Of a stretch of DNA of 64,000 bases, positions 6,006-52,495 are shown one piece after another. The DNA comes from an uncultured Phycisphaerales bacterium (GTDB taxonomy: Bacteria; Planctomycetota; Phycisphaerae; WQYP01). Position 1 is the stretch's first letter. Every line of letters starts with the position of its first letter. The stretch is taken from NCBI GenBank assembly GCA_963766775.1, contig CAVYBP010000010.1, positions 120,523 to 184,522 on the forward strand, in the 5' to 3' direction. The position numbers were made by a program, and so were the translations under genes. The notes below the pieces were generated by a model. It was not told where the DNA came from, searched no databases, and saw only the letters and a list, made by a program, of their open reading frames with translations.

Positions 6006-6725
6006 TCAGGGGGCGGCAACAGTCCAGATGCGCTTGCCGATAGGAAGAGGTGAATCATAAATATTGGCTTTGTAATCCGCCCAGTTGTGCTGCTCTACGT
6101 GGGCATCCAAAAACAACACGTTACCAAGGTTTTGATGCCGCGCGAGCAGTCCGGCTTGCAAGGTTTCTACAAGGCCATCAAATTGTCCGAAGTAGGTGAC
6201 GAGACCTTTCGCACCAGCAATAGGTAGCTGGCCCGCCCCCTGCCCCACATCGGCCATTAGAAGTGCAGAAGCGGGATGGGTGATATCCGTACTTCGCCAG
6301 TAGGTTCCATTCATACCGCCGGAGGCATGCAGGTTGCCGATATTATCCGTATAGCGGACAAATCCATAATCTATGGGCCCTGCGGGAATAGAGGTCTGAC
6401 TCCCTGCCTTAAGATAGACGCCAAAGGCCGGATCTGCGGGGCAGGTATGCAGTCCTTTGGAAAATTTCGAGTTTGGCGGCCACTCGTTGTCGTAAAAGTG
6501 CTGGGTGTTAGGATTTGCCCATTGCGTATCGGCTTGCATCCATCCATCGTATTCTGTCATGTATATATTTACAATATTACCCCATTGCTTAAGCACTGAG
6601 GCGCATTTCACGCGATATGCTGTCGCCTTTGCCTTGCCTAGAGCAGGGAGGAGGATGGCGATCAGCAGAGCGATGATGGCGACCACCACGAGTAGTTCGA
6701 TAAGGGTGAAACCCCGTCTACGCAT
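6006..6725 (-). CDS. prepilin-type N-terminal cleavage/methylation domain protein (paralog of 4813-5538)
   Basis: [28 protein letters not shown]-terminus, [12 protein letters not shown] motif; start at internal Met (ORF extends to 6869). Confidence 0.7.
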
Positions 6726-7476
6726 AAGTATCTCCGATCTAAAATGTACCCAAACCACAGTATAAGAAATGTTAAAGTGCCCGCAGTGCGGGCACTTCTG
6801 TGGCGAATTGCGTGATATGCAAATCACTCGAATCGGTTCTATTGTCCAACCTTGAACGCATAATATCAAATTTTGATCAGTGAGACGTGTAGATCAATAC
6901 AGAATAATCGATCTAACGCAAACAAGCAACAGCAAATTTCGCAAATTTCGGGTGCGGAATTTCGAAAATTTGCGATGCGAGATTTTCCATGTGGAGAGGG
7001 GTGACACCTGACGACCAAGGGAAGAAAACGCTATTTTTGGCTTTGCGACTGCGATTCCGACTTCGTCCTCTTAATCGCTTTTTAAAAAGATGGAAGATCG
7101 GGATGTTGAGGCGCGGCATTCGGGCGCCCGAGGCAGCGGCGTCGATTCTAGGACAAATATGTGTGCTTTTGTATTCTTCTCAAATAGGTTTTTAAGCCCA
7201 AAACAGAGCTGGTTTTGAAAGCTTTTTTGGATGAGATGGGGGCATTTTGGAGGGAACTCGTTTTTGTGAAGAATAAAGTGGCGTAGGGTGGGCACTATTA
7301 AAGTGGTGGGTCCTAGCGGTACCGCGAAGGCATGTTCGTTAGGTCCGATTTCGTTGGGCCTGATTTGGATCGGATGTGGGCTTTGATGGTTAAGAAACGG
7401 TCCATGGCGGTGCGGCGGGGGGGGGGGATTCCGGCGGAGCCGGTGACGGCGGCTATTTTTTCGCCGCAGGTGACAA

Positions 7477-8310
7477 ATGCGCGGCGGTGTTTTGTGGGGC
7501 CGGCGTCGGATGGGGCCGGGTCACTGGCGGTGGTTTGTTGCGGACGGGAGCAATGTGCCGCCGGCGTACGAGGTTCGACGTCCGAGCTTTCCGTATCTTG
7601 GGGTGGAATTTGTTGCGAGCGGGGAAGGGGTGTTGCGGATGGGGGGCAAGGAACATCGGTTGGTGGCGGGGGTGGTTTTTGCGTATGGGCCTGGGGTGGC
7701 GCATGAGATCACGTGTGTGCCGGAACGGCCGTTGGTGAAGTATTTTGTGGATTTGGCGGGGCGGGACGCGGATGAATTGCTGGTGACGCCGCGTCCGGGG
7801 GGGATTGTTCAGACGTCGGCACCGGAGCAGATTTTGCGGTTGTTTGATGATCTGCTGGATGCGGGGATGAAGAAATCGGCGATGACGGAGAAGATCTGTG
7901 CGGTGATCGTGCAGCATTTGTTGTTGAAGATAGCGGAGACGGCGGTGCCGCTGGGTGAGACTGGGGCGGAAGCGTTTGAGACGTATCAGCGGTGTCGGAG
8001 TTATATCGAGACGAATTATCAGAATGTGGTGGACTTGCCGCAGATCGCGGCGCATGGGGATATTGATCCGGCGTATGTGTGCCGATTGTTCAAGAGGTTC
8101 GATCGGCATGGTCCGTGGCAGTATGTGGTGAAGTTGAAGATGCAGGATGCGGCGCAGCGGCTGAAAAGTCCGGGAGCGATGATCAAGACGGTGTCGGCGG
8201 AATTGGGGTTCAGCGATCCGTTTCAGTTTTCGCGGACGTTTCGGCGGGTGTATGGGGTGTCGCCTCGGCGGTTTTTGCAGTTGCAGCGGGGGGCGGCGGT
8301 GGGGGTTTGA
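7477..8310 (+). CDS. AraC-family transcriptional regulator (cupin N-domain + C-terminal HTH)
   Basis: C-terminal IKTVSAELGFSDPFQFSRTFRRVYGVSPRRF AraC HTH signature; N-terminus uncertain (poly-G11 at 7421-7431 and alternative frame upstream). Confidence 0.55.
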   Translation: MRGGVLWGRRRMGPGHWRWFVADGSNVPPAYEVRRPSFPYLGVEFVASGEGVLRMGGKEHRLVAGVVFAYGPGVAHEITCVPERPLVKYFVDLAGRDADELLVTPRPGGIVQTSAPEQILRLFDDLLDAGMKKSAMTEKICAVIVQHLLLKIAETAVPLGETGAEAFETYQRCRSYIETNYQNVVDLPQIAAHGDIDPAYVCRLFKRFDRHGPWQYVVKLKMQDAAQRLKSPGAMIKTVSAELGFSDPFQFSRTFRRVYGVSPRRFLQLQRGAAVGV

Positions 8311-8508: not shown

Positions 8509-9586
8509 TCAGCGTTGGAGTTCTTGGTTTTCGGGGATTCCGGGTTCGTCGAGGAGTTGGAGGGAGGTAGCGGGGCCGAGGTCGGCGGGGGCGTCCCAGG
8601 CACGGAGGGCCCAGACGAGTTTCTTGTCGGGGGTGACTTCGAGAGCCTGGACGGACTTGGGCCAGTCTTTGGGGTTTTTGATTCCGTTGGGGCACCAGTT
8701 GGTGATGACGGTGTTGCCGTTGGCGAGGCGGTCGGCTTCCTGGATGCTGAAGAGTTTGATGTCGGGGACGTCTTTCTGGGTGAATTCCCAGACGGTTTGT
8801 TTGTCGGGGGTGACTTCGTGGATGAAACCTTTGTTGCTGGTGATGAGGGTGTTGCCATTTTTGAGGCGGACGGCGGCCCAGGGCGCGGGGACTGCGATGG
8901 ACCAGATTTCCTTGCCGGTGTTGTCGTATTCGGCGACTTTATTCATGTCCATGTGGGTGGCGAGGAAGGTACCGGCGGCGGTCATGCGGACGCGGCGGAA
9001 TTGGCCGTGGGTTTTGGTGGGGTAGCCGGTGGGGAGGGTGAATTGGGTTTCGGTTTTGTCGGTGGCGAGGTTGAGCACGGTGAGTGTGGCGGGGTTGCCG
9101 TTCTGGACGTACATGACGCTTGTCGAGGCCGATGGGTTGGACGGAATGGACTTCAAAGCCTTTGGGGGCGGTGTAGGACCAGAGGATTTTTTTGTCAGCG
9201 GAGATTTTGGCGGCACCGGTTTTACAGCCGTAGACGACGGAGCCGTCGGAGAGGAGGGTGGCGTCGGAGAATTCGGAGAGTTGTTTGTTTTCGTCTTTGG
9301 TAGGGATGGAGTAGTCCCAGACGATTTTGCCGTCCTTGACGATGAACATGGTTTGTTGGGGCTTGGGGTAGTTCCACTCGCCGGCGTAGAAGAAGGGGTG
9401 TTGTGAGAGGCCATTGCCGGGGAGGGTGTCGGGGGAGAGTGGGCCGGTCCAAGCGGGTTTTGTGGAGGCGGCGCGGGTGGTGGTGGGGAGGGTAGTAGAG
9501 GTTTGTGCGTAGAGGGGAAATGTGAGGGCAAGGAGCAGGGACAGAGAAAGTTTGTAGGGCATGGGTTCTCCAGAAAAAGATGCCAC
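8509..9586 (-). pseudogene. secreted beta-propeller repeat protein, paralog of 13249-14319, interrupted by a 1-bp frameshift near 9120-9125
   Basis: N-terminal half read in ORF 8939-9586 and C-terminal half in ORF 8509-9531 both align with the intact paralog; length 1078 nt is not a multiple of 3; removing one A from GACAAGCGTCATG restores IGLD-SVMYVQNGN. Confidence 0.5.
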
Positions 9587-9600
9587 GACGCAAGATAGAT

Positions 9601-10260
9601 TTAGCCGCGGTCCTGGGGACCGCGTGCGAGTGAGTCAATACCGCTCGACAAAGGCCCAACGCTGGCGTTTTTTTCCCTCTTTGAGGGGATTGTTTTCGAC
9701 GTACTTGATCGCGCGGTGCATGTCCTGGGGCGAATCGAGAAAGACGTTCCAGCCGCGACGCGCCAGCAGGTGGCGCGGCCGCCATCGGGATCAAAAGAAT
9801 TCTGAAAGGGATGAATTTGCGCGGCCGTCAGCGCCCCGCTCGCCCGGCCTTTGAGTTGATTCATGACCTGCGTGATGGGGCGGTGTGTGCGGCCGATGAC
9901 GAGGTGAACATGTTGCGGAAGGATAGCGCAGGCATGAAAGCGGAGGAGCCAATGGGTCATGACTTCCTGGAAGCCGAGGGCGATGGCCACGGCTTGGTGT
10001 CCGTCCCAAGTGACCGGTGGATGTTTGAGGAGTTGTTTCATGGCGAGGCGATGGTCGCGGTTGTGGGGAACGGCGGCGACGGATTTTCGGGTTTCGACTT
10101 TGGTGGCCTTTCCGCCGGCGAGGAAGAGTTCCCATGCGCCGACGAAGTCGGACCAGCTTCCGCGCGGGTCGTTGGGGAGCCAGAAGCCGTAGGCGGTGAG
10201 GATCATGTGGTAGCCGAGGATCATGGTCGCTCCGCGTGCGGCCCCGAGGGCCGCGGCTAA
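9601..10260 (-). mobile_element. IS200/RAYT-like element: single HuH-Y1 transposase gene flanked by 13-bp terminal inverted repeats embedded in GC hairpins
   Basis: ends TTAGCCGCGGTCC (9601-9613) and GGGCCGCGGCTAA (10248-10260) are inverted repeats; hairpins CGCGGTCC-TGG-GGACCGCG (9606-9624) and GCGGCCC-CGA-GGGCCGC (10238-10254); element exactly fills the intergenic gap. Confidence 0.55.
9635..10224 (-). CDS. IS200-like/REP-associated tyrosine transposase (HuH Y1) with a frameshift near 9750-9770
   Basis: GYHMILTAYGFWLPNDPRGSW N-terminus, HuH motif HVHLVI; true C-terminus WNVFLDSPQDMHRAIKYVENNPLKEGKKRQRWAFVERY (catalytic Tyr in IKYVENNP) is in the +1 frame ending at 9635; 590 nt is not a multiple of 3. 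Confidence 0.5.
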
Positions 10261-10265
10261 ATGGG

Positions 10266-13120
10266 TTAGTGTGGGAGGTTTCCGAAGTAGATGGAGAGTT
10301 GGGTGTGGTAGTCGCCGGTGGCGATGGGTTGTTGGGAGTTGGGGCCTTCATCCGCGGGGTTGCTGAATTTTGTGCCGATGGCGGGGATTGCGTGGAGGAA
10401 GGCGATGGAGGTGGCGGGGTAGGGGACGAGGGTTTTGAGGGCGAGTTTTTTGTCGGGTTGGGTGGGGGTGAAGTTTTGGAGGAAGAGGTTATCAGTGTGG
10501 ACGAGGAAGGTGATGGGGCCTTCGGTGGTTTGGTATTGAGCCCAGCGGACGTTGGCGAAGTAGCCTTTGAATTCGGGGTATTTCCAGGGGATGGAGCCGG
10601 TGACGGAATCGTTGTAGTCATTTTGCCAGACGCCGAGGGTGGGTCCGGCGGTGCGGTTTTTGTAGACGCGGGTGGGTCCGTCGCCGAGCCATTTGAGGGA
10701 TTTGATATTTTTTTCGGGGTAGTTGAATCCGAGGCCGATGAAGTTTTGGGGGCCGGTGAGGTTGTAGGTGGCGTCGAAGTCGATCCAGCCGGAAGAGTGG
10801 ATACTCCATGTGGCGGATTTCATATTGCCTGAATAGGTGGCGGTGACGGTGGCGAGGATGTCTGCATTTTTAGCGTAGTCGCCTTTGAGAGAGATGAGTT
10901 TGGCGTCGCCGGTGACAAGGCGGGGGCCATTGGTGAGGGAGAAGTTTTTTCCGCCGTGCGCGACGGAGGCGAGAAGTCCATCGGACTTGTGGAAGGTGAG
11001 GAGGAGGCCATTGGTGCCGGTGACTCTGATGGCGTCGGGGGATTCGGAGACGTTGGTGATACCGTTGGCGAATGCGGGTTGAGTCGTGATCGCCATGTCG
11101 GGGGTGGCATGTGGTAAGTAAAAACCGGCGTGAAAAGTTCTTCGCCGGCGGCGTTTTCGATGCGGATGGCGAGGGCGTCGGCGGGTTCGGCGGGCTGTGT
11201 GGTGGGCGGGAGGTGGAATAGAAGTTTGCCGGTGGCACCGGGGGCAATGTCAGGGGAGGCGATGGGGCCTTCGGCGACTACTTTGAAGTTCGTGGTGTTA
11301 TCTGACAGGGAGGGGAATTTGCGGAGTTGATAGGAGAATTTGCACTGGTTCAGGTTGACGAAGTCGTAGCGGTTTTCGACAGTGAACTGGTTGTCTTTTG
11401 GGACTTCTTTGTTGGTGATAACGACGGGGGACCAGAGTTGTTTGATGGTGTAGAAGGAGGCTTCTTTTTCGCGGTAGGGGCCGACGATGCCGTCGGGGGC
11501 CAGGTTGCCGCGGGTGTCGAGGAAGCCACCGGCGTCAACGCGTTTGGGGGCTTCATCGAGGAATGCCCAGATGAATCCGCCGGCGGAGACTTTGCCGTGG
11601 CGGATGACGTCCCAGTAGTCTGCGAGGGATGCGCCGGCGCCGCCGTCGTAGAGGCCGTGGATCATTTCGGTGGGGAAGAAGACGTTGTCGCCGTCGAGCT
11701 TTGGCGACGAGGGTTTTGTAGTCGGGGTAGTGCTTGGTGTCGACGTGATCGTTGACGGCCCAGGGGTGGAGGACGTGGCGTTTTTGCGGGTCGATGCGGG
11801 GAAGTCGGCGTCGAGTTTGGTGTTCCAGCCGCATTCGTTGCCGTTGTCCCAGAAGAGGATGGAGGGGTGGTTGACATCGCGTGTGACCATTTCCTTGACG
11901 ACTTTGTGGCCGATGTCGTCGTCGTAGTTGGCGTGCCAGCCGGGGAGTTCGTCGAGGACGTAGAGGCCCATGTCGTCGCAGGCGTCGAGGAAGTGCTGGT
12001 CGGGCGGGTAGTGGGACATGCGGACGGCGTTCATGTTCATCTGCGTGCATGAGGGCGATGTCGTCGCGGGAGATTTTTTCGGAGGTGCAACGGCCGGAGT
12101 CGGGCCAGAAGGTAGTGGCGGTCGGAGCCTTTCAAAATGATGCGGTTGCCGTTGACGAAGAGGCCTTCGCCGTTGCGGACTTCGATGGTGCGGAAGCCGA
12201 AGCGTTGAGGGTATGGTGTGCAGGGTGACGTGCGCCTTTTTTAAGGCGGAGTTCGGCGAGGTAGAGGTTGGGGGTTTCGGCGGTCCAGAGTTTGGATGGA
12301 TTTGAGATTTGAGATTTGTGGAGAGGAGAACGCTCCTGACGGTTGCGTCTCGGAGTTCCCGCTGGTGCGGTTGAGGGTGGCGGAGAAGGGTTGGCCGACG
12401 GGGTTGCCGTCGGTGGTGAGGATTTGAGCTTCGAGGGTGGTGGCGGGGTCGGCGTGGTCGGTGAAGGCGTCGAGCGGAGAAAGAGCCGTCGGCTTTGGCG
12501 TTGATGGCGACGTGGTCGATGAATTGTGGTGGGACGGATTCGAGGTAGACAGGGCGGTAGATGCCGCGCGTAGTTGCAGTAATCGCCGCGGCGTTCGGCG
12601 TTGTTGATGGATGTGGTTGGCGGATTCGTCGATCGACGATGACGTCGAGGGTATTGGGTGCGCCGGGTTTGAGGAGGTTGGTGACGTCGTATTTGAAGCG
12701 GAAGTAGCCGCCCTGGTGTATGGGGCCGACGGATTTGCCGTTGATGAGGGCTTGGGTGTCCGTCATGACGCCTTCAAAGACGAGGAAGTTGCGGCGATTG
12801 GCAAAGTCGGATGGGAGGGTGAAGGTGGTGGAGTAATGGCCATGGACGGGAATGACGGGGACGCCGGGTTTCGTTTTGGAGCTGCGGTGTTCGACGCCGT
12901 AGGTGAAGATTCCGAAGCCTTGGAGTTCCCAGTTGGAGGGTACGGGGATGGTGGAGGGGGTATTGGCGTGTTGGCCGGTGGTGCAGGAGAATTTCCAGGG
13001 GATGGCATCGTCTTTATTATGGCCGGAGAGGTAGAGGGTGGCGGTCTCGGTGGGGGGCTGTGCGGCAAGGGCGGAGGTGGCGGCGAGGAGTAGGGTGGCG
13101 ATGGAGAGAGGCAGTTTCAT
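10266..13120 (-). pseudogene. GH2 beta-galactosidase (lacZ-like) with at least 6 frameshifts
   Basis: signal peptide MKLPLSIATLLLAATSALA; GH2 segments GIYRPVYLE, KLWTAETPNLYLAELRL, QRFGFRTIEVRNGEGLFVNGNRIILKG, MNMNAVRMSHYPPDQHFLDACDDMGLYVLDE, C-terminal Bgal small-domain (ORF 10266-11096), scattered over three frames between 11500 and 12650. Confidence 0.5.
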
Positions 13121-13248
13121 GGATGCTCCGAAAGGTGGAGAGGTGTTCACGCGGGACGAGGGGGCTGTACCGAGTTGAAGGTTGAGAATTTTAACCGCGA
13201 AGGCGCGAAGACGCGAAAGGGGGAGGAAGAGATTTTAAGAGGTTGTTC

Positions 13249-14319
13249 TTACCGCTGTTGCTCTCGGTTTTCGGGGATGCCGGGTTCGTCGAGGAGTTGG
13301 ATGGAGGAGGCGGGGCCGAGGTCGGGAGCGGACCAGGAGCTGAGTGCCCAGACGATTTTTTTGTCTGGAGTGACTTCGAGGACCTGGACGGAGCCGGGCC
13401 ATTTTTTGGTGTCTTTGACGGAGACGGGGATCCAACTGCACATGACGGTGTTGCCATTGGTGAGGCGGCTGACTTCCTGAATGATGAAGAGCTTGATGTC
13501 GGGGCTGTCTTTTTGGGTGAAGTCCCAGACGGTTTCGCCGTTGGGGTTTACTTCGCGGACTCCGTGGGAGGAGCAGGAGATGAGGGTGTTGCCGTTTTTG
13601 AGTCGGACGGCGTCCCAGGGGTCGGGTGCGTCAATGGCCCAGATTTTTTTTCCGTCGGCGTCGTACTCGACGACTTTTTTCTGGTCGACATGCGCGGCGA
13701 GGTAGGTGCCGGCGGGGGTCATGTGAACGCGTCGGAATTGGAGGTGGGGTTTTTCGGGGTGGGGGACGGGGAGGATGAGGGTTTTTTCGGTGACGTTGGT
13801 GGTGGTGTTGATGAGCATGAGGGTGGCGGGGTTGCCGTTCTGCATCATGAGGACGTGGTCGAGGCCGATGGGTTGGACGGAGTGGACTTCGGCATTTTTG
13901 GGGCAGTCGTAGTTCCAGATGATTTTTTTGTCAGGGGTGATTTCGCTGGCGCCGACCTTGCGGCAGAAGACAATGTTGCCGTTGGAGAGGCGGGTGGCGT
14001 CACCGAGTTCCTGGAGAGTGCCGTTGGGGTCTTTGATGGGGACGCTGTAGGACCATTCGACTTTGCCGTCGCGGACGAGGTAGATGGTTTGGAGTGGGAA
14101 GCGGTGGTCCCATTCGCCGGTGTAGAGGAAGGGGTGTTGAGCAAGGCCCTTGCCGGGGAGGAATGCGGGGTGTGTGGCCGGGGCGGTGCTGGTGGCGGGG
14201 GCAGTTTGGGCGGGGGCAGTTTGAGCGGGAGCCGGGGTGTCGGCGAAGGAGGTGAGTGGGAGGAGCATGGCGGCGAGAGCGATGGTGGTGAGCGATGCGG
14301 CGATGCGCTGGGTGTGCAT
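13249..14319 (-). CDS. secreted beta-propeller repeat protein (PQQ-like/ASST-like fold), intact paralog of 8509-9586
   Basis: signal peptide MHTQRIAASLTTIALAAMLLPLTSFA; ~60% identity to the translated pseudogene at 8509-9586; family assignment tentative. Confidence 0.5.
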   Translation of the reverse strand: MHTQRIAASLTTIALAAMLLPLTSFADTPAPAQTAPAQTAPATSTAPATHPAFLPGKGLAQHPFLYTGEWDHRFPLQTIYLVRDGKVEWSYSVPIKDPNGTLQELGDATRLSNGNIVFCRKVGASEITPDKKIIWNYDCPKNAEVHSVQPIGLDHVLMMQNGNPATLMLINTTTNVTEKTLILPVPHPEKPHLQFRRVHMTPAGTYLAAHVDQKKVVEYDADGKKIWAIDAPDPWDAVRLKNGNTLISCSSHGVREVNPNGETVWDFTQKDSPDIKLFIIQEVSRLTNGNTVMCSWIPVSVKDTKKWPGSVQVLEVTPDKKIVWALSSWSAPDLGPASSIQLLDEPGIPENREQQR

Positions 14320-14356
14320 GGAAAACCCTCGAGAAGGAAAGTGACAATGCGGCGGA

Positions 14357-15079
14357 CTATTGGGAAGCGGCAAGCGCTTCATCGAAGATCACGGCGGTCA
14401 GGGTGTGTTGAACGGAGCGGATGTGCTGATCCATGGCTTTAGCGGCGCGGTCGCCTTCACCGGCGAGGAGCGCTTGCACGATTTTGAGGTGTTCGGGGAT
14501 ATCGTTAGAGCGTCGGTAGGCGGTTTCGGAATCGCGGAGGTGGGAGACGTTTCGGAGTGCGCGGAAGAGGACGAGACAGCGTTCGATTTCGGCGGCGAGG
14601 CGAGGATTTCCGCAGTGCTCGGCGATGAGGGTGTGGAGGCGCGTGTCGGCAAGGCGGGCGCGCTGGTCGCGGCGTGCATTGCGGGGAAGTTTATCGACCT
14701 GGCGGAGTTCGGTGCGAAGGTCGTCGAGGCCGGTGATGGGGAGGTTTTTGGCGGCGCAGAGGACGGCTTCGACTTCGAGGATGCGGCGGATTTGGGAAAG
14801 GTCGCGGAGCTGGGTGGGGCCGAAGGGTTTGACGACGGCGCCGCGGTTGGGGAGTAGAGCGACGATTCCAAGGCCCGCAAGTTCGACGAGGGATTCGCGG
14901 ACGGGGGTGGGGCTTACGCCGAAGAGTTTGGCAAGGCGTTCGACGACGAGTCGTTCGCCGGATTTGAATTGGGTTTCAAAGATCGCGGTGAGGATGCGAT
15001 GAGAGACCTGTTCGCGCAGGCCGACACGAGCGAGGGGAGTGTCGATGCTGAAGTGGGTGTTGAAATTTTGCCGTTTCAA
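14357..15079 (-). CDS. GntR/FadR-family transcriptional regulator
   Basis: N-terminal winged HTH (REQVSHRILTAIFETQFKSGERLVVERLAKLFGVSPTPVRESL) plus FCD-like C-domain; TTG start with GGAGG 7 nt upstream (ORF extends to ATG at 15130). Confidence 0.6.
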   Translation of the reverse strand: MKRQNFNTHFSIDTPLARVGLREQVSHRILTAIFETQFKSGERLVVERLAKLFGVSPTPVRESLVELAGLGIVALLPNRGAVVKPFGPTQLRDLSQIRRILEVEAVLCAAKNLPITGLDDLRTELRQVDKLPRNARRDQRARLADTRLHTLIAEHCGNPRLAAEIERCLVLFRALRNVSHLRDSETAYRRSNDIPEHLKIVQALLAGEGDRAAKAMDQHIRSVQHTLTAVIFDEALAASQ

Positions 15080-15133
15080 ACAGTTCCTCCGAAGGGGGCA
15101 GAGTATACCGTCGGCGGTTGTAAGGGCCATCCC

Positions 15134-15161: not shown

Positions 15162-15214
15162 ACGGCAAAGCGTTGAGAGTTCGGTCAACCGTTCCCCGGC
15201 AAAAGAGGAAACGA

Positions 15215-16519
15215 ATGTTGCGATGGCGGATCGCCATTCTGGTGAGCGCGGCGATTGCGATCAGCTATCTGGATCGCCAGACGTTGCCGCTGGCGATCAA
15301 GGCGGTTCAGACCGACATTCCGATTTCAAATCAGGTGAAGGCGTTTTTGGATACGGCATTTTTGGCGTCGTATGGGTTGATGTATCTCGGCGGGGGGAAG
15401 TTGCTGGATTTGTTGGGGACGCGACTGGGGTTCGGGTTAGTGATGGTATTCTGGTCACTGGCTTGTGCGAGCCATGGGCTTGCGGGAGGAGTGGTTTCAC
15501 TGGCGATTTCTCGGCTATTGCTGGGGTTGGGGGAAGGGGGTGGATTTCCGGCGGCGACGCGGGCGGTGGCGGAATGGTTTCCAATTAAAGAACGATCGAC
15601 GGCGATGGGGATCATGAATGGCGGGACGGCGATCGGGGGAATTGTCGCGGGTCCGCTGATCACGTTGGTGTTGCTGCCGTATATACATTGGTTCGATGTG
15701 GCGTCGTGGCGGTGGGTATTTTTTCTGACGGGCGGGATGGGTTTGTTGTGGACGTTGTGGTGGGCGGCGGCTTATTTTCCGCCGGAGCGGCATCCGCGGC
15801 TGACGGAGCGGGAGCGTGGGGAGCTCGAATCGGTCCTGCGGCGGGAGGATGCGCCGCTGGAAACGCCGGTTCCGCTTCGCGTGTTGCTGCGATATCGGCA
15901 GACGTGGGGGCTGGTAGGGGCGAAGTTTTTAACGGATGCGGCGTGGTACTTTTATTTATTTTGGCTTCCGAAGTATCTCTATGACGCGCGAGGGTTTGAT
16001 TACAAGGCGACTGGGTCGGTGGTGTGGATACCGCCGGCGGCGTCCGGGGTGGGATGTCTGGTGGGTGGGATGTGTTCGAGTTGGTTGATCAGGCGTGGTC
16101 GGTCGGTGGATTTTTCCCGGAAGGCGGTTCTTTTCGGAAGTGCGATGATGATGCCGCTGGTGGTTCTTGTGCCGTTTGTGTCGGTGCCGTGGGTGATTGC
16201 GATTTTTAGCATCGCGTTTTTCGGGCAGCAATCGTGGTCGACGCTGATCATGATTTTACCAACGGATCTTTTTCCGAAGCGGACGGTGGGGACGGTGGCA
16301 GGGCTGGTGGGTTTAGGGGGTGCAATGGGCGGGATTGTGCTGGGGCAGGTGGCGGGCTATTTACTGGATCACGGGTACAGTTATGTTCCGGTGCTGGGCA
16401 TTGCGGGTTGTTTACATGTGGCGGCGTTTATTGTGATACTTGCGATGGTGCCGTCGTTGCGTCCGATTTCATTGAGTGCGGATGGAAGTTATTCACGAAA
16501 TTTAGAGGGTGTGCGATGA
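15215..16519 (+). CDS. MFS transporter, anion:cation symporter family (hexuronate/aldonate, ExuT/DgoT-like)
   Basis: 12-TM MFS with N-terminal AISYLDRQTLPLAIKAV...GLMYLGGGKLLD; RBS AGAGGA; stop overlaps the next start as ATGA. Confidence 0.65.
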   Translation: MLRWRIAILVSAAIAISYLDRQTLPLAIKAVQTDIPISNQVKAFLDTAFLASYGLMYLGGGKLLDLLGTRLGFGLVMVFWSLACASHGLAGGVVSLAISRLLLGLGEGGGFPAATRAVAEWFPIKERSTAMGIMNGGTAIGGIVAGPLITLVLLPYIHWFDVASWRWVFFLTGGMGLLWTLWWAAAYFPPERHPRLTERERGELESVLRREDAPLETPVPLRVLLRYRQTWGLVGAKFLTDAAWYFYLFWLPKYLYDARGFDYKATGSVVWIPPAASGVGCLVGGMCSSWLIRRGRSVDFSRKAVLFGSAMMMPLVVLVPFVSVPWVIAIFSIAFFGQQSWSTLIMILPTDLFPKRTVGTVAGLVGLGGAMGGIVLGQVAGYLLDHGYSYVPVLGIAGCLHVAAFIVILAMVPSLRPISLSADGSYSRNLEGVR

Positions 16520-24597: not shown

Positions 24598-26943
24598 GTG
24601 ATGCGTTCCATTGAGTGGAAGGGTTTTGGCGCGGCGGTTTTGGTGTTGGCGGTGGCGGGATTGGAGGGTTGTGCGCCGCGCGGCGAGGAGGGTGGTGAAA
24701 GCCTGCATCATTATATGGTGGCAAACGAGGGGGCGTGCGTGGGCGGGCGCGAGCGGTTGTTTAATGAGGGTTGGCGATTTGTGAATGGGGATGTGCGGGG
24801 CGCGGAGGGGGTGGTTTTTTCGGATGCGGGGTGGCGCGGGGTGATGTTGCCTCACGATTGGAGTGTGGAGGGGCCATTCGATCAGAAGTGGGCGAGTGCG
24901 ACGGCGTTTTTGCCGGCGGGGGTGGGGTGGTATCGGAAGACCTTTGCGACGCCGGGCGATGCGGCGGGGAAAGCAGTCGCGATTCATTTCGACGGGATTT
25001 ACAAGCAGAGCAAAGTGTGGTGCAACGGGCATCTGTTGGGCGAGCGGCCGAGCGGGTATGTGGCTTTGGATTATGAATTGACGCCCTATTTGAATCCGCC
25101 GGGGGAGAAGAATGTGATCGCGGTGCGGGTGGATCATTCGGATTTTGCGGATTCGAGGTGGTATCCGGGGTCGGGGATTTACCGGAATGTGTTTCTTCGC
25201 GTGACGGATGCGGTTCATGTGGCGGCGGATGGAACTTTTGTGACGACGCCGGAGGTCTCCGCGACGGGGCCGTCGCGGGTGGATGTTGAAACGACGGTGG
25301 TGAACGGGGGCCGCGAAAATGTGGATGTCACGGTCACAAGCAGCGTGAAAGATGATAAGGGGCACGTGGTGGCGGGGGCGGAGCATCGCCAGACAATTGC
25401 GGCAGGCGGGCAGAGTGTTTTTCAGGGCGACATGTCGGTGATGCACGCGGCATTGTGGTCGGTAGCGCATCCTGTTTTGTATACGCTGGAGACGCGGGTG
25501 ATGAAGGGCGGGCGCGAGGTGGATCGATACGAGACGCCGTTTGGAATTCGCGCGGTGAAATTTGACCCGGTGCACGGACTGCTGGTGAATGGGGAGGCCG
25601 TGAAGATGAAGGGGGTGTGTTTGCATGAAGATGCGGGAGTGCTGGGGTCGGCGATTCCGGTGGAGGTGTGGGAGCGGCGGCTGCGGATATTGAAGGAAGG
25701 CGGCTGCAACGCGATTCGGACGAGTCATAATCCGCCGGCACCGGAATTTCTCGATCTGTGCGACCGCATGGGGTTTCTGGTCATGGATGAAGCGTTTGAT
25801 GAATGGAACAAGGCGAAGAAGAAATGGGTGGATGGATGGAACGGGACGAAGTTCAGTCTTGACGGTTATCCGCCGGCGTTTGAGAAGTGGGCGGATCGGG
25901 ATATTCAGGCGATGGTGGTGCGCGATCGGAATCATCCGAGCGTGATCATGTGGAGCATCGGGAACGAAATCGATTATCCAACCGACCCGTATCCGGTGAA
26001 TTCGCCGGAGCTTTTGCCGATTGCGCAGCGATTGGTAAAGGATGTGAAGGCGATGGATACGACGCGGCCGGTGACGGCGGCGTGCGCGGCGATTCGGACG
26101 AATCTGTTTTTTCCCGCGTTGGATATTGTGGGATACAACTATCAGGAGAAGTTGTACGCGGAGGATCATGCGGCGCATCCGGAACGGATCATGTACGGCA
26201 GCGAGAACAAGCACGATCTCGCCGCGTGGGAGGCGGTGGAGAAAAACGAGTTTATCCCCGGGCAGTTTTTGTGGACGGGGATTGATTATCTGGGGGAATC
26301 GCACAAGTGGCCGAACCGGGGGAACCCGAGCGGGCTGTTGGATTACGCGGGATTTCCGAAGGCGGCCTATTACTTTCGGCAGAGTTTGTGGAGCGTCAAG
26401 CCGATGGTTTATTTGGATCGCGTGGCGGACGGGGTGCAGTGCGATACGAATTGTGAGAGTGTCGAATTGTTTGAGGGCGGGAAGTCCGTGGGGGAGAAGA
26501 CGCTGCCTGCGGATCGGGTGATCCGTTGGTCAGTGGGTGCGGACGGCGGGGATCTGAGGGCGGTGGGAAAGAATGGGGGCAAGGCGGTTTGTGAGTTTGA
26601 GTTGAAGAAGGCGGGCCCCGCGAAAAAGTTGGTGATTCGGGAATATAAAACCGAGGCGCGGACGTGCGAGGGCGTGCGCGTGGCTCAGTTGGAAATGGAT
26701 GTGACTGATGATGCGGGGAGGTGCGTGACGACGGCGGCGGATCGGATTGAGGTGACGTTTGAGGGGGAAGGACGGTTGTTGGGGATTGAGAATGGCGATG
26801 TTGCGGATCATGAGAATGGGCAGGTTCGAGCGAAGAAGGCGTATCACGGGCGAATGATTGTGTATGTCGAGGTGCGAGGCGCGGTGATAGTTCATGCGTC
26901 GGCGGCGGGTTTGAGCGCTGCGGGATTGCGGTTGAAAGAATAG
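24598..26943 (+). CDS. glycoside hydrolase family 2 (beta-galactosidase/beta-mannosidase-like)
   Basis: GH2 architecture with NAIRTSHNPPAPEFLDLCDRMGFLVMDEAFDEWN catalytic region, sugar-binding N-domain, signal peptide. Confidence 0.7.
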   Translation: MMRSIEWKGFGAAVLVLAVAGLEGCAPRGEEGGESLHHYMVANEGACVGGRERLFNEGWRFVNGDVRGAEGVVFSDAGWRGVMLPHDWSVEGPFDQKWASATAFLPAGVGWYRKTFATPGDAAGKAVAIHFDGIYKQSKVWCNGHLLGERPSGYVALDYELTPYLNPPGEKNVIAVRVDHSDFADSRWYPGSGIYRNVFLRVTDAVHVAADGTFVTTPEVSATGPSRVDVETTVVNGGRENVDVTVTSSVKDDKGHVVAGAEHRQTIAAGGQSVFQGDMSVMHAALWSVAHPVLYTLETRVMKGGREVDRYETPFGIRAVKFDPVHGLLVNGEAVKMKGVCLHEDAGVLGSAIPVEVWERRLRILKEGGCNAIRTSHNPPAPEFLDLCDRMGFLVMDEAFDEWNKAKKKWVDGWNGTKFSLDGYPPAFEKWADRDIQAMVVRDRNHPSVIMWSIGNEIDYPTDPYPVNSPELLPIAQRLVKDVKAMDTTRPVTAACAAIRTNLFFPALDIVGYNYQEKLYAEDHAAHPERIMYGSENKHDLAAWEAVEKNEFIPGQFLWTGIDYLGESHKWPNRGNPSGLLDYAGFPKAAYYFRQSLWSVKPMVYLDRVADGVQCDTNCESVELFEGGKSVGEKTLPADRVIRWSVGADGGDLRAVGKNGGKAVCEFELKKAGPAKKLVIREYKTEARTCEGVRVAQLEMDVTDDAGRCVTTAADRIEVTFEGEGRLLGIENGDVADHENGQVRAKKAYHGRMIVYVEVRGAVIVHASAAGLSAAGLRLKE

Positions 26944-33285: not shown

Positions 33286-35877
<2,592 letters not shown>

Positions 35878-36399: not shown

Positions 36400-37299
36400 T
36401 TAGCTGTTCACCACCGTGCCTCCGTTGGGATGCAGAATCTGCCCGCTCATATAACTCGCGTCATCGCTGGCGAGAAACAAGAATGATGGCGCCACCTCCT
36501 CGGGCTGACCGGCACGCCCCAACGGAACATCCTTTCCAAAATTCTCGACCTTCTCTTTGGGAAACGTGCTCGGAATCAGCGGCGTCCAGATCGGGCCTGG
36601 CGCGACGCCATTCACGCGAATCTTTTTCTTCGCCAGCAACTGCGAGAGCGACCGCGTGAAGGCGACGATCGCGCCCTTGGTCGCCGAATAATCAAGCAAT
36701 TGCGGGCTGCCCTTGTAGGCCGTCACGCTCGCGGTATTGATGATGGCGGAACCTTCTTTGAGATGCTTCAGGGCATGTTTCGCGAGAAAAAAGTAGCCAA
36801 AAATATTGGTGCGGAAGGTCCGTTCCAACTGCTCCTGTGTGATATCCTCCAGCGAGGATTGGGGATGCTGTTCGGCGGCGTTGTTCACAAGAATGTCGAG
36901 CTTGCCCAGTTGCTGAACCGTTTCCTGTACTGCCTTGCCCGCGAATTTTTCATCGCCGATATCGCCGGCCAGTTTGATGCAGCGCCGCCCTTCCGCGGTA
37001 ACCAGCCGCACCGTTTCGTCGGCGTCCTTGTGCTCGTTCAAATAGACAAACGCCACATCCGCGCCTTCGCGCGCGAACAGAACCGCCACCGCACGGCCTA
37101 TCCCCGAGTCGGCCCCGGAGATGAGGGCGACCTTCCCATGGAGCTTCCCGCTGCCGCGACGATGCTCATCAATCACCTCCGGCTGCGGAGTCATTTCGTC
37201 TTCACGTCCCGGCCGGTGCGGTTGTGTTTCGCCGGAAATTTTCTGTCCGAGGCGTTCCCGTTTGTTCTCACGGACTGATTCTTTATTGTGCGCAACCAT
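36400..37299 (-). CDS. SDR-family NAD(P)-dependent oxidoreductase, YghA-like
   Basis: GKVALISGADSGIGRAVAVLFAREGADVAFVYL, catalytic YSATKGA; N-terminal extension as in E. coli YghA. Confidence 0.7.
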   Translation of the reverse strand: MVAHNKESVRENKRERLGQKISGETQPHRPGREDEMTPQPEVIDEHRRGSGKLHGKVALISGADSGIGRAVAVLFAREGADVAFVYLNEHKDADETVRLVTAEGRRCIKLAGDIGDEKFAGKAVQETVQQLGKLDILVNNAAEQHPQSSLEDITQEQLERTFRTNIFGYFFLAKHALKHLKEGSAIINTASVTAYKGSPQLLDYSATKGAIVAFTRSLSQLLAKKKIRVNGVAPGPIWTPLIPSTFPKEKVENFGKDVPLGRAGQPEEVAPSFLFLASDDASYMSGQILHPNGGTVVNS

Positions 37300-41120: not shown

Positions 41121-41492
41121 GGCACCGTTTCCTTTTCGTCGGCGCGGGGACGCATCGGCCGCGGTTGCTGGTTCCACCAGTAAATACATCGACCGATTGC
41201 ACGCTTCACTATATGCAGAGTTTTGCCGGGGTTGGATGAAATCGGAAAATTTTGCAGGGTGGAGCGAGGGCGGGGGGTAACCGCGTTATTGGGTGAAAAA
41301 CGGGGATGGTTTTTCGTATAGGCGAAATGGGGGGAGTTCTTTCTTGACAATTTCATCTGTTTCGCTTGAATAGCCGATTCGCCTTCGGGGTCTCTGCCTA
41401 TAGTTTTGGCGGAAAAACCTTATTTAGCCCGGATGTCGTGCGGTCAGGGAAGGCCGACGACGGCGTATTGACACTCTTAGGATTGGACACTC

Positions 41493-44238
41493 GTGGCCAA
41501 AACCGTTCGTAAAAGCACCACTCCACGCCCCGATCCCGCCTCGGGAGGCCCCGACAACTCCTCGGGACACCCCGGCCCCTCCTCGGGAAAGGCCCTGGTG
41601 ATCGTGGAGTCGCCGGCGAAGGCGAAGACGATCAATAAGTACCTGGGCCCTCGGTTTGTCGTGAAAGCGTCGATGGGGCATGTGCGCGATTTGCCCGAAA
41701 AGGGGATGGGTGTTGATACGGAGAATCATTTCACGCCGACGTATGAAATTCTGGCGTCGCGGAAGAAGATCATTGCGGAGTTGAAGTCGGCGGCGAAGGG
41801 TTGCGATGAGATTTATCTGGCGACCGACTTGGACCGGGAGGGCGAGGCGATCGCGTGGCATCTGGCGCAGCGCTGGGATCTTGATCCGCTGACGGCGAAG
41901 CGGGTGGTGTTTAATGAGATCACGAAGACGGCGATTTTGAATGCGTTTCAGAATCCGCGGCCGATTAATGAATCGAAGGTGAATGCGCAGCAAGCGCGGC
42001 GTATTTTGGATCGGCTGGTGGGTTACAAAATTTCGCCGTTGTTGTGGAAAAAGGTCGCGCGCGGGATTGTCGGCGGGGCGGGTGCAGTCGGTGGCGGTGA
42101 AGCTGGTGGTGGATCGGGAGCTGCTGATTCAGGCGTTCATTCCGGAAGAGTATTGGAAGCTGACGGGTATTTTCACGGCGGATCTGGTGCGTGCGCCGGC
42201 ACTGGCGGGGGAGTGGCGGAATTTTCTGGCGGGGAATGCGGCGGAGACGGCCGAAGAGCAGCCGGATGATGGGACGGATTCGGCGGAAGCGGTGGCATGC
42301 GGCAGCGGCGGGTGGGCCGACGGTTGCGGAGAAGACGCGCGTTTCTGGCGGAGCATGCGGCGTTTCGCGCGGAATTGATTGAGGTGGCGGGAAAGAAGTT
42401 TGATCCGAAGGATGGCGCGGTGGCGCGGCAGGCGGCGGAGATGGTCGGCCTGGTGGATATTCAGGTGACCACCGTCGACAACGACGGGACGAATGGCCCG
42501 CGGGGGATTCCGAACAAAGGGCCGGCGACGAAGCTGACGACGGTCACGGGGTTGCCGGATCCGACAGCGGACGGGCGTGAATTTAGCGGTGCGGGAGCTG
42601 AATCAGAAGCTGTCGACGAGCCGGCCGCCGGGACCGTTCTCGACAAGCACGCTGCAGCAGGCGGCGAGCAACCAGCTTGGTTTTGGCGCGCAGCGGACGA
42701 TGCGCGTGGCGCAGCAGTTGTATGAAGGCGTGGAGATCGCAGGGGCTCGGGCGCGGTTGGTTTGATCACGTACATGCGTACTGATTCGCAGAACATCAGT
42801 CAGGATGCGCTGGCCGCGGTGCGGGGTTATATCGGGGAGAATTTTGGGGACAAGTATTTGCCGGAGTCGCCGAATTTTTATGCGAGCAAGGCCGGGGCGC
42901 AGGAAGCGCACGAAGCGATTCGTCCGACGGATGTGACGCTGTCGCCGGCGTCGTTGCGGAACCGCGGGGTTGAATGAAGAGCAGTTCAAATTGTATGAAG
43001 TGATCTGGAAGCGATTTGTGGCTTGCCAGATGACGCCGGCGCAGTGGAATGTGACGGAGGCGATCATCGACGCAGGAGGAAGAAGGCGGAGCGGCGGCGC
43101 GGTGGCGACGTTTCAAGGCGGTGGGGCGGTCGTTGGCGTTTGATGGGTTTACGAAGGTGGCCGGCGTGTATGCGCGGTTTGACGAACAGATTCTGCCGAA
43201 GCTGGCGCAGAGCCAGCCGGTGGCGCCGCTGGATCTGACGCCGACGCAGCATTTCACGAGCCCGCCGTCGCGTTATTCGGAAGCGTCGCTGGTGAAGGCG
43301 TTGGAGGCGGAGGGGATCGGCCGGCCGTCGACGTATGCCTCGATCATCGCGACGATTCAGGATCGGCAATACGTGGAGAGCAAGGGGCGGACGCTGTATG
43401 CGACGGACCTGGGGATCAAGGTGACGGAGAAACTGGTCGAGGGTTTCCCGGACATCATGGAGACGCAGTTCACGCGGAACGTGGAAGCGCAGCTGGATCA
43501 GGTGGAGGAGTCGCAGAAGGACTGGGTGGAGGTGATGCAGGAGTTTTACACGCCGCTGGAGCGGGACCTGGCGACGGCGGAGACAGCGGATGACGCACGC
43601 CCGCGCGGAGGCGATACCGTCGGAGTACAAGTGCCCGACGTGCGGGGCGATGATGGCGTATCGGCTGTCGAAGCGCGGGAAGCGGTTCTTGTCGTGCTCG
43701 CGTTATCCGGAGTGCAAGGGGGCGCAGAACGTGGATCGGGAAGGGAAGCCGGTGGTGCTGGAGGTGACGGACTACAAGTGCCCGACGTGCACGAAGCCGA
43801 TGATCAAACGGCTGGGGCGATTTGGGCCGTTTCTGGGGTGCTCGGGGTATCCGGAGTGCAAGGTGATTCAGAACATCGACAAGAAGACGGGCGAGCCGCT
43901 GCCGCCGAAGCCGCCTCCGGTGGATACGGGGCTGGTATGTCCGAAGTGCGGGAAGAAGAACATTGTGGTGCGGCAGGGGAAGCGCGGGCCGTTCATGAGT
44001 TGCAGTGGTTTTCCGAAGTGCCGGACGACGTTGCAGGCGGAGCGGCTGGAGGAATTCAAGGCGTCGGTGGCGGCGGGGAAGGGTTGGCCTGACGGATATT
44101 CAGGCGAAGTTTGGCGCTGGGAAGGGTGTGGGGAAGGAAGAGGTAGAGGAGGTTGTGGAAGTGGTGAAGGTGAAGAAGGCGAAGGTGGTGAGGAAGGCGG
44201 CGGTGCGGGGGAAGGTGGCGAAGGTGAAGGCGCCGTGA
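41493..44238 (+). CDS. topA: DNA topoisomerase I with 8-9 apparent frameshifts; three C-terminal zinc ribbons and a Lys-rich tail
   Basis: Toprim ([18 protein letters not shown]), [17 protein letters not shown] active-site Tyr region, [30 protein letters not shown], three C4 ribbons ([32 protein letters not shown] etc.); pieces lie in ORFs 41493-42269, 41983-42378, 42297-42725, 42577-42765, 42762-42977, 43121-44092, 43590-44309, 44005-44238. Confidence 0.75.
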
Positions 44239-51419: not shown

Positions 51420-52495
51420 CTATTGGGGAGGGCTTTTATAGAGGGCGGAGTAGTCGGTGTCGGTGGGGTGTTGGGCGTACCAGGCGAACAGAAATGAGTA
51501 GACTCGCAGTGCGTGGGGTTGCGTTGCGGGGGGGGGTGGGGTTGCGATTGCTGCTTCGGTGGTGGCTTTCCAGTGGGTTCCATCGGTGGTGGTGAGAATG
51601 AGGGGGGTTTTGAAGGGGAGGGTGGAAGTGGGCCACGGGGGGGTGGGGGCGACGGGGAAGCGGATGTCGTCGGTGGCGAGGTAGAGGTTGAAGGGGTCCT
51701 GGGCGTCGGTGTAGGACTGTTTCAGGGTGCGCAGGCCGCGGAAGACGCGGGTGGCGGGGTGGGCGGCGAGCCATTGTTTCCAAGTGGTCAACTCGAAGGG
51801 GAGGAGGGTAAGCGACTTGCCGGCGGCGGGGCCGGCGATGGCGCGGAAGGAGAGTTGGGACCACAGCGATTCCTGCGCGGGGTCTGGATGGCGGTCGAAG
51901 AGGAGGAGGTTGGAGTTGTACAGGAGGCCGGAGACGCCGAATTCGAGGCCGGAGGCGGGGGCGGGGACTGGGGAGGGGGGGGGGGGGCGGGGCGGGTGAA
52001 GACGACGGCGCTGCCGGAGAGGGCGGACCAGGTGACGGCGAAGGGGGTGTTGGCGATTCGGTCGTTGACGATTTCGTGGAGGTTCATGAAGCGGATGGGG
52101 TAGGCGCGGGCCTGGCCGTCGATGAGGACGCCGATGACGCGGTCGGGGCCGAGGAGGAAGGGGGTGTAGTCGTGCTGGTTCATGAGCTCGACTTCGGGCG
52201 GGGAGAGGGTTTCGACGAGCGATTCGGGGACGGCACGGACGGCGTCCTTGGGCTTTCCGGAGGGGATGAGCTGTTCGCGCGGGACGGTGAGGTTGGCGAG
52301 GTTGAAGTGGTAGGAGTCGAGATGCTGGCCGTCGCCGACGGCGGAACGGAACCCGGTCTGCCACACCGGGATGAGGACGATGACAGCGGAGAGGAGGGTG
52401 AGGATCGCGGCAAGGAGGAGGACCCAGCCGCCGGAGGAGAAGGTGAGGAGGCGGGTGGGGGGGTGGGGCGGCGGGATTTCTGGTGGGTGTTGCAT
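51420..52495 (-). CDS. membrane-anchored DUF3179-like protein interrupted at an internal G13 (poly-Pro-coding) tract
   Basis: N-terminal TM (GWVLLLAAILTLLSAVIVLI) and DYTPFLLGPDRVIGVLIDGQARAYP in ORF 51788-52495; C-terminal half in ORF 51420-52364; frames switch at G13 tract 51975-51987. Confidence 0.45.

Follow-up and report, generated by a model that had tools for sequence, protein, structure and literature searches.

A probable REPtron-like unit with a RAYT-like HUH/Y1 gene in the spacer of a planctomycete carbohydrate-utilisation cluster

In this study we analysed a 64-kb stretch of DNA (hereafter the window) from contig CAVYBP010000010.1 of an uncultured Phycisphaerales bacterium, in which a single HUH/Y1 gene and the inverted hairpins at its two sides form a unit of 664 bp (9599-10262). 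This unit is probably REPtron-like: a gene resembling those of REP-associated tyrosine transposases (RAYTs) would be accompanied by inverted modules resembling repetitive extragenic palindromic (REP) sequences, the whole occupying a spacer of a carbohydrate cluster whose frameshifts would be artefacts. On the minus strand the genes follow one another in the order GntR/FCD regulator, beta-propeller gene B, glycoside hydrolase family 2 (GH2) gene, Y1 gene and beta-propeller gene A. The original prediction, made from the sequence alone, had taken the region for a decaying locus around a REP-associated, RAYT-like element; the REP/RAYT part of this view held up, the decay part did not.

The two inverted arms of the unit (9599-9628 and 10233-10262) are 30 nt long each and 83% complementary, in agreement with the predicted single-gene HUH-Y1 element with inverted ends in GC hairpins. 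Over their outer 15 nt, ATTTAGCCGCGG(Y)CC, both arms match save at the Y position, and each holds a G+C stem of 8 bp that closes a loop of 3 nt. The downstream end module (9599..9628, plus strand) reads ATTTAGCCGCGGTCC TGG GGACCGCGTGCG, that is, a TTAGCC foot and the 8-bp stem, and as DNA it folds with -11.6 kcal/mol (z -4.0). The upstream end module (10233..10262, minus strand) reads ATTTAGCCGCGGCCC TCG GGGCCGCACGCG. Between the two ends, a C>T change is compensated by a G>A change, and the stem is preserved. The foot of the module can be given as (A/G)TTTAGCC, followed in the window type by the 8-bp G+C hairpin. The unit fits closely between its neighbours: the upstream module begins 3 nt past the GH2 stop codon and stops 8 nt before the ATG of the Y1 gene, with its hairpin stem ending 14 nt before this ATG, and the far end of the unit lies 36 nt ahead of the propeller A start codon. 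Since only these 3 nt and 36 nt separate the unit from GH2 and propeller A, it fills an operon spacer that would otherwise measure 39 nt. The rest of the 64-kb window contains neither another exact copy of the 13-mer end, two matches with 2 mismatches being at chance level, nor another module. A candidate third module close upstream of topA (41424-41470, plus strand), composed of TATTTAGCC and a weak stem, folds no better than shuffled sequence (z -0.19) and is probably a chance occurrence.

The Y1 gene (9635..10224, minus strand) encodes a protein of 196 amino acids (aa) once a single -1 shift near 9761 is corrected. At this site, which the original prediction had overlooked, TGGGCG appears as TGGCG with the loss of one G, and the tyrosine motif AIKYVENNP is put out of frame. 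The corrected protein contains the HUH motif QHVHLVI, the catalytic Tyr within AIKYVENNP, and YGFWLPNDPRGSW at its N-terminus. Its predicted membership in a planctomycete-abundant YGFWLPNDPRGSW family was borne out by 4,466 relatives (E <= 1e-3), of which almost all have 192-255 aa; those with a name belong mainly to Phycisphaerae and Planctomycetes. In 35 sequences the residues H105, H107 and Y175 and the N-terminal GFW-PN-RGS are invariant. Some source annotations carry an automatic RayT label for this family. When classified with profile models, the protein found its best family match in NCBIfam NF047646 REP_Tyr_transpos (51 bits, E 1.2e-13), below the curated cut-off of 80 bits; this RAYT model outranks the IS200 model, which gave E 2e-3 and also stayed below its cut-off, and Pfam Y1_Tnp (PF01797) matched with 18 bits (E 0.003) and did not reach its gathering cut-off of 23 bits. 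The AlphaFold2 (AF2) model (pLDDT 81) matched ISDra2 TnpA, E. coli TnpA_REP (4er8) and IS608 TnpA in Foldseek with a probability of 1.0. With H105-V-H107, the single tyrosine Y175 and the Y1 fold, the protein belongs to the HUH Y1 superfamily. Residues 16-53 show high sequence conservation, although the AF2 model renders them as an insertion of low confidence that separates the first strand from the first helix. The gene also shows a weaker periodicity of G+C at third codon positions (GC3) and a third-position skew of 0.46 versus 0.72-0.76 in its neighbours, which hints at a later arrival or at different constraints.

The modules recur around related genes in other genomic contexts. Next to a 72% identical homologue that lies between a hypothetical gene and rtcB (L001), the window-type module forms a perfect 30-nt inverted repeat, and an identical 26-nt module flanks homologues of 65-72% identity in three other contexts (L001, L009 and L019). 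More distant homologues (53-58% identical) have kept the 9-mer TTAGCCGCG with different stems. At one locus (L021) inverted doublets flank the Y1 homologue on either side (fold z -13), and at another (L031) the module is a double-foot palindrome (fold z -9.8). In total the TTAGCCGCG foot is present at 6 of the 8 family loci examined, i.e. the window and seven further distinct loci, and modules around Y1 genes are always in inverted orientation. Since the unpaired foot is conserved and the stems are lineage-specific and pair-preserving, we regard this pattern as a REP/RAYT signature. Family proteins that occur on several contigs (2-6) always represent one locus across different samples. Inverted TTAGCCGCG-foot hairpins at homologues in unrelated contexts, some of them as doublets, together with the solo modules described below, support the earlier assignment as REP-associated and RAYT-like and not a classical insertion sequence (IS).

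A scan for the window-type module over 185,579 species genomes found 10 loci, comprising one full unit, seven solo modules, one variant with two mismatches and one probable chance match. The latter, in a Megasphaera metagenome-assembled genome (MAG; L010), has 6 mismatches to the 26-mer and was treated as chance, as by our own estimate about one chance match is expected in 596 Gb. The seven solo modules (0-1 mismatch) come from four Planctomycetota MAGs, four of them from a single one. Judged by eye from their flanks they are extragenic, and no Y1 gene is present within the 1.3-8 kb examined per locus. Several solos stand 15-45 nt upstream of a start codon. In all seven (L005, L006, L007, L008, L012, L013, L014) the strand with TTAGCC is the C-rich strand, with a local skew on this strand of -0.19 to -0.89, or of -0.19 to -0.50 if one 74-nt flank is left aside. 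A two-sided sign test gives approximately 0.016 for this strand bias, albeit from a small sample. The bias is consistent with a fork-coupled model like that of TnpA_REP.

The window as a whole has a GC skew of +0.3 to +0.47 in 2-kb bins. Expressed for the plus strand, the skew at third codon positions is mostly +0.4 to +0.86, and +0.32 at the lowest, in skewed genes of either strand. Skew is close to zero (-0.26 to +0.09) in gyrB and in the open reading frames (ORFs) at 36400, 38197, 54950 and 651, and the window therefore is a mosaic. Loci of relatives (L002-L007, L012, L024) show skew of like magnitude. A literature search found nothing relevant on extreme GC skew in Planctomycetota.

As assembled, three genes of the locus are interrupted by frame changes. 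The GH2 beta-galactosidase-like gene (10266..13150, minus strand) contains approximately 9-11 of them and no in-frame stop. A frameshift-aware alignment to an intact homologue of 988 aa (L015), with 52% identity over 980 columns, placed 11 frame changes (8 of +1 and 3 of -1), and a reference-free GC3 frame plot at least 5; the gene is thus multiply frameshifted, as had been predicted. After correction it is full length and retains the NGNEC (GNE) and PTE(M/F) segments, which we take, from knowledge of LacZ, to be the expected sites of the catalytic glutamates. All four Pfam matches sought in such a protein were obtained, namely to the N-terminal sugar-binding domain, the TIM barrel, domain 4 and the small-chain domain. 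The two propeller genes were correctly recognised as paralogues on the same strand, one frameshifted and one intact. Propeller A (8509..9562, minus strand) is Mala_s_1-like, starts with a signal-like N-terminal segment, MPYKLSLSLLLALTFPLYA, and has a single +1 frame change near 9118. Propeller B (13249..14382, minus strand) is intact, matches PF22701 and likely starts at the ATG at 14322. Between the two, 212 of 378 aligned aa are identical (56%), and their DNA is 73-78% identical across about 900 bp.

Genes elsewhere in the window are disrupted in the same way. The topA gene (41595-44036) is readable only as 8 segments stitched from 3 frames, with at least 7 frame changes in 1.6 kb, a density comparable to that of GH2, and the stitched product of 849 aa matches Topoisom_bac (390 bits), Toprim and three zinc ribbons. 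The gyrB gene (33286-35877) is spread over three frames, with +1 shifts at 34219, 34244 and 35079 as derived against the database protein P0124, and a DUF3179 gene (51420-52495) has one shift. No in-frame stop occurs in any of the three genes or in the Y1 gene. Like topA, gyrB is an essential gene. The same 331-aa GyrB fragment is present in the public contig record at NCBI and ENA, and two GyrB fragments from other read sets (P0121 and P0363, ~90% identical) run unbroken through the shift sites at 34219 and 35079. A related long-read assembly from the European Nucleotide Archive (L032; ENA ERZ25039475 contig_625), with a GyrB that is 94% identical in aa, has four gyrB shifts of its own; the DNA it shares with the window is limited to gyrB and 213 nt. 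Two of these shifts (9988 and 10851) lie at positions orthologous to 34219 and 35079, with different base changes. The recurrent shifts occur in the contexts (AAC)n, GAT[A]C (a GATC site) and (GC)3, and probably stem from a systematic error of basecalling or consensus at (AAC)n, GATC and (GC)n sequences. In the search for a motif common to the shift sites, CAGATG, GATC and (GC)3 were suggestive as single cases only. In a further ENA assembly (L022) the EF-G gene (801-2873) has about 20 single-base insertions and is split into five called genes, whereas a sister assembly has it unbroken on a contig of 92% identity (L023).

Because the essential genes topA and gyrB are broken alike in the same window, we consider the shifts of the locus to be an assembly artefact: the frame changes of GH2, propeller A and the Y1 gene most likely stem from indel errors of long-read assembly, and the organism itself probably has intact versions of all three. 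Much less likely is a genuine origin for some of the +1 shifts that recur in essential genes, with the cell decoding them. The original prediction favoured real decay, which would be specific to the locus and would make GH2, propeller A and the Y1 gene pseudogenes that collected indels after inactivation, possibly linked with insertion of the Y1 unit into the operon spacer. Such decay could account for the position of the unit within an apparent operon and for a count of frame changes (13 in 4.7 kb) that no other part of the window reaches, with genes at 13.2-31 kb and 46-51 kb looking intact. We nevertheless judge it unlikely, as the essential genes topA (at least 7 changes in 1.6 kb) and gyrB (3) are disrupted too, and as the corrected GH2 aligns end to end at 52% identity, with neither a stop nor a large deletion and with GNE and PTE(M/F) conserved. 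Moreover, +1 insertions predominate, as they do among the errors of the EF-G gene in L022, the Y1 shift is one G dropped from a G-run, and the GyrB fragments of other read sets are unbroken where the window is not. Clusters of one-base indels mimic pseudogenes here and in sister long-read metagenome assemblies, and calls of "decay" need checking against nearby essential genes.

For the unit itself, an autonomous IS200-type insertion sequence, in which the 664 bp would transpose as a whole with the hairpins as left and right ends, has to be considered. Its sharp boundaries ATTTAGCC...GGCTAAAT, found in four unrelated contexts, would suit such an element, as would the GC3 periodicity and skew of the Y1 gene where they suggest a later arrival. 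We hold this to be rather unlikely, however, since the window contains one copy and each protein occupies one locus across samples, since solo modules exist without the gene, and since doublets and extra modules around distant homologues are REPtron-like. The ends are also inverted copies of one module, whereas IS200/IS605 elements have distinct left and right ends on the same strand (PMC6006769). It is highly improbable that the hairpins have nothing to do with the Y1 protein and serve the adjacent genes as ordinary terminators of transcription or stabilisers of mRNA. Although they are G+C stems in intergenic DNA and several solos stand just upstream of gene starts or past gene ends, no T-run follows them, and the 26-mer, with its unpaired TTAGCC foot, stays 100% identical while the adjacent protein falls to 65-72%. 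Neither the retention of the foot across lineages with entirely different stems nor the invariably inverted orientation of the modules around Y1 genes would be expected of terminators.

Several observations weigh against a REPtron-like unit with artefactual frameshifts. High copy number is the defining trait of classical REPs, and it is not seen here: any species-representative genome holds at most 4 exact copies of the module, and the 64-kb window holds no extra one. The Y1 protein stays under the curated cut-offs of the RAYT and the Y1_Tnp models alike. The foot TTAG(CC) differs from the published REP feet, which are GT[AG]G, CGTC or CnGA (PMC6006769, PMC3733652); the string TTAG is absent from both of these articles, and a literature search found nothing relevant on TTAGCCGCG as a REP foot. 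With regard to the frameshifts, two gyrB shift sites recur orthologously in L032, which fits systematic error and is not proof of it, and the frame changes are strongly clustered, with none from 13.2 to 31 kb, which leaves room for a local real component.

Apart from the unit, propeller B, GH2 and propeller A lie on one strand and make up an ordinary cluster for carbohydrate utilisation in a Phycisphaerae-like planctomycete. It is bordered by the GntR/FCD-family regulator (14357..15130, minus strand) and an AraC-family regulator (7477..8310, plus strand), both assigned by family match, and by an ORF (15173..16519, plus strand) whose hydrophobic, G/L/V-rich translation we read by eye as a putative membrane transporter. 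A second GH2 gene, intact and 24% identical to the L015 reference, is located 11 kb away (24598-26943, plus strand). At 6006-6869 (minus strand) lies a gene whose product carries an N-terminal methylation motif of the prepilin type (PF07963); such proteins are typical of Planctomycetota and Verrucomicrobiota, in keeping with the taxon that GyrB suggests. Rfam and tRNA scans across the entire window gave no matches. In a test for synteny or an empty site, a metagenome scan with the GH2 C-terminus reached 48% identity at best and found no propeller neighbours.

We propose that the gene encodes a RAYT-like HUH/Y1 nuclease for single-stranded DNA (ssDNA), with one inverted cognate REP-like module on each side. 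By analogy with E. coli TnpA_REP and with the TnpA proteins of IS608 and ISDra2, the enzyme would bind the hairpin as ssDNA at the replication fork and may read the unpaired foot as a guide. Cleavage and rejoining would be carried out by the single tyrosine Y175 together with the HVH metal site, and the outcome would be hairpin modules dispersed at low frequency. Catalytic activity, strand choice and mobilisation of the modules are what we infer from these characterised relatives.

The closest known counterparts are the REPtrons, exemplified by the RAYT (TnpA_REP) of E. coli, YafM (PDB 4er8). The planctomycete protein shares with it one HUH motif, one Tyr, the Y1 fold and a Y-x-x-x-N-P tyrosine motif. 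The genetic arrangement is also alike: the gene lies between inverted short hairpins whose unpaired 5' foot is conserved and whose stems vary with the lineage, and doublets and solo extragenic copies occur. Proteins on 2-6 contigs correspond to the same locus, and one gene copy at a fixed site would be a further resemblance. Unlike in REPtrons, the foot is TTAG(CC) instead of GT[AG]G, stems of the window type are short, with 8 bp around a 3-nt loop, and modules are few: the 64 kb yielded no additional one, and no reference genome more than 4. The protein further differs by a conserved insertion of ~40 aa (LPNDPRGSW...GGxATK) between beta1 and alphaA and scores under the NCBIfam RAYT cut-off (51 versus 80 bits).

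Subclass motifs are given by Quentin et al. 2018 (PMC6006769), where subclass 2.4 corresponds to the group 4 RAYTs of Bertels. Likened by motif description, the protein resembles this subclass in its tyrosine motif (YVENNP, compared to Y[IV]xNNP) and its length (196 aa, compared to a median of 194 aa), and the palindrome at L031 recalls its "double-foot" REPs. It differs in the HuH context (QHVH instead of NH[IFV]H), the W motif (W-A instead of WQ) and the foot, and REP insertions inside the gene were not seen. With the class 3 TnpA_Y1 proteins of Planctomycetes and Acidobacteria (Quentin et al. 2018) it shares planctomycete hosts, the xHVH and W[TA] motifs, an extended conserved N-terminal region, and REPtron-like flanks with atypical hairpins. 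Class 3, however, combines Y----Q with a CnGA foot, whereas Y---NP and TTAG are found here. The TnpA proteins of the IS200/IS605 family (IS608, ISDra2) are the best structural matches and follow the same logic of ssDNA hairpin recognition, and a strand bias of insertion is expected for them from coupling to the replication fork. In contrast to the one copy in the window, these elements are multicopy; they have distinct one-strand ends and no inverted identical ends, where the unit has inverted copies of one module, and their tyrosine motif is Y---Q.

The main departure from classical REP systems is the low copy number. If the REPtron-like interpretation is correct, the planctomycete family brings a deep-branching phylum into the REP/RAYT paradigm. 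Tentatively, the YGFWLPNDPRGSW proteins may form an undescribed RAYT-like class that spans the Planctomycetota and is marked by a TTAGCC guide foot, an extra loop between beta1 and alphaA, REPs of very low copy number and solos on one replication strand; we offer this as a possibility and not as our expectation. Were it true, the extreme GC skew, which reveals the strand from the sequence, would turn these genomes into a natural test system for replication-coupled mobilisation of REPs. Compared to the described systems, the family stands apart by its guide foot, its very few repeats and the consistent strand bias of its solo modules, and it would represent REP/RAYT at low copy number, possibly in an early stage or under tight control.

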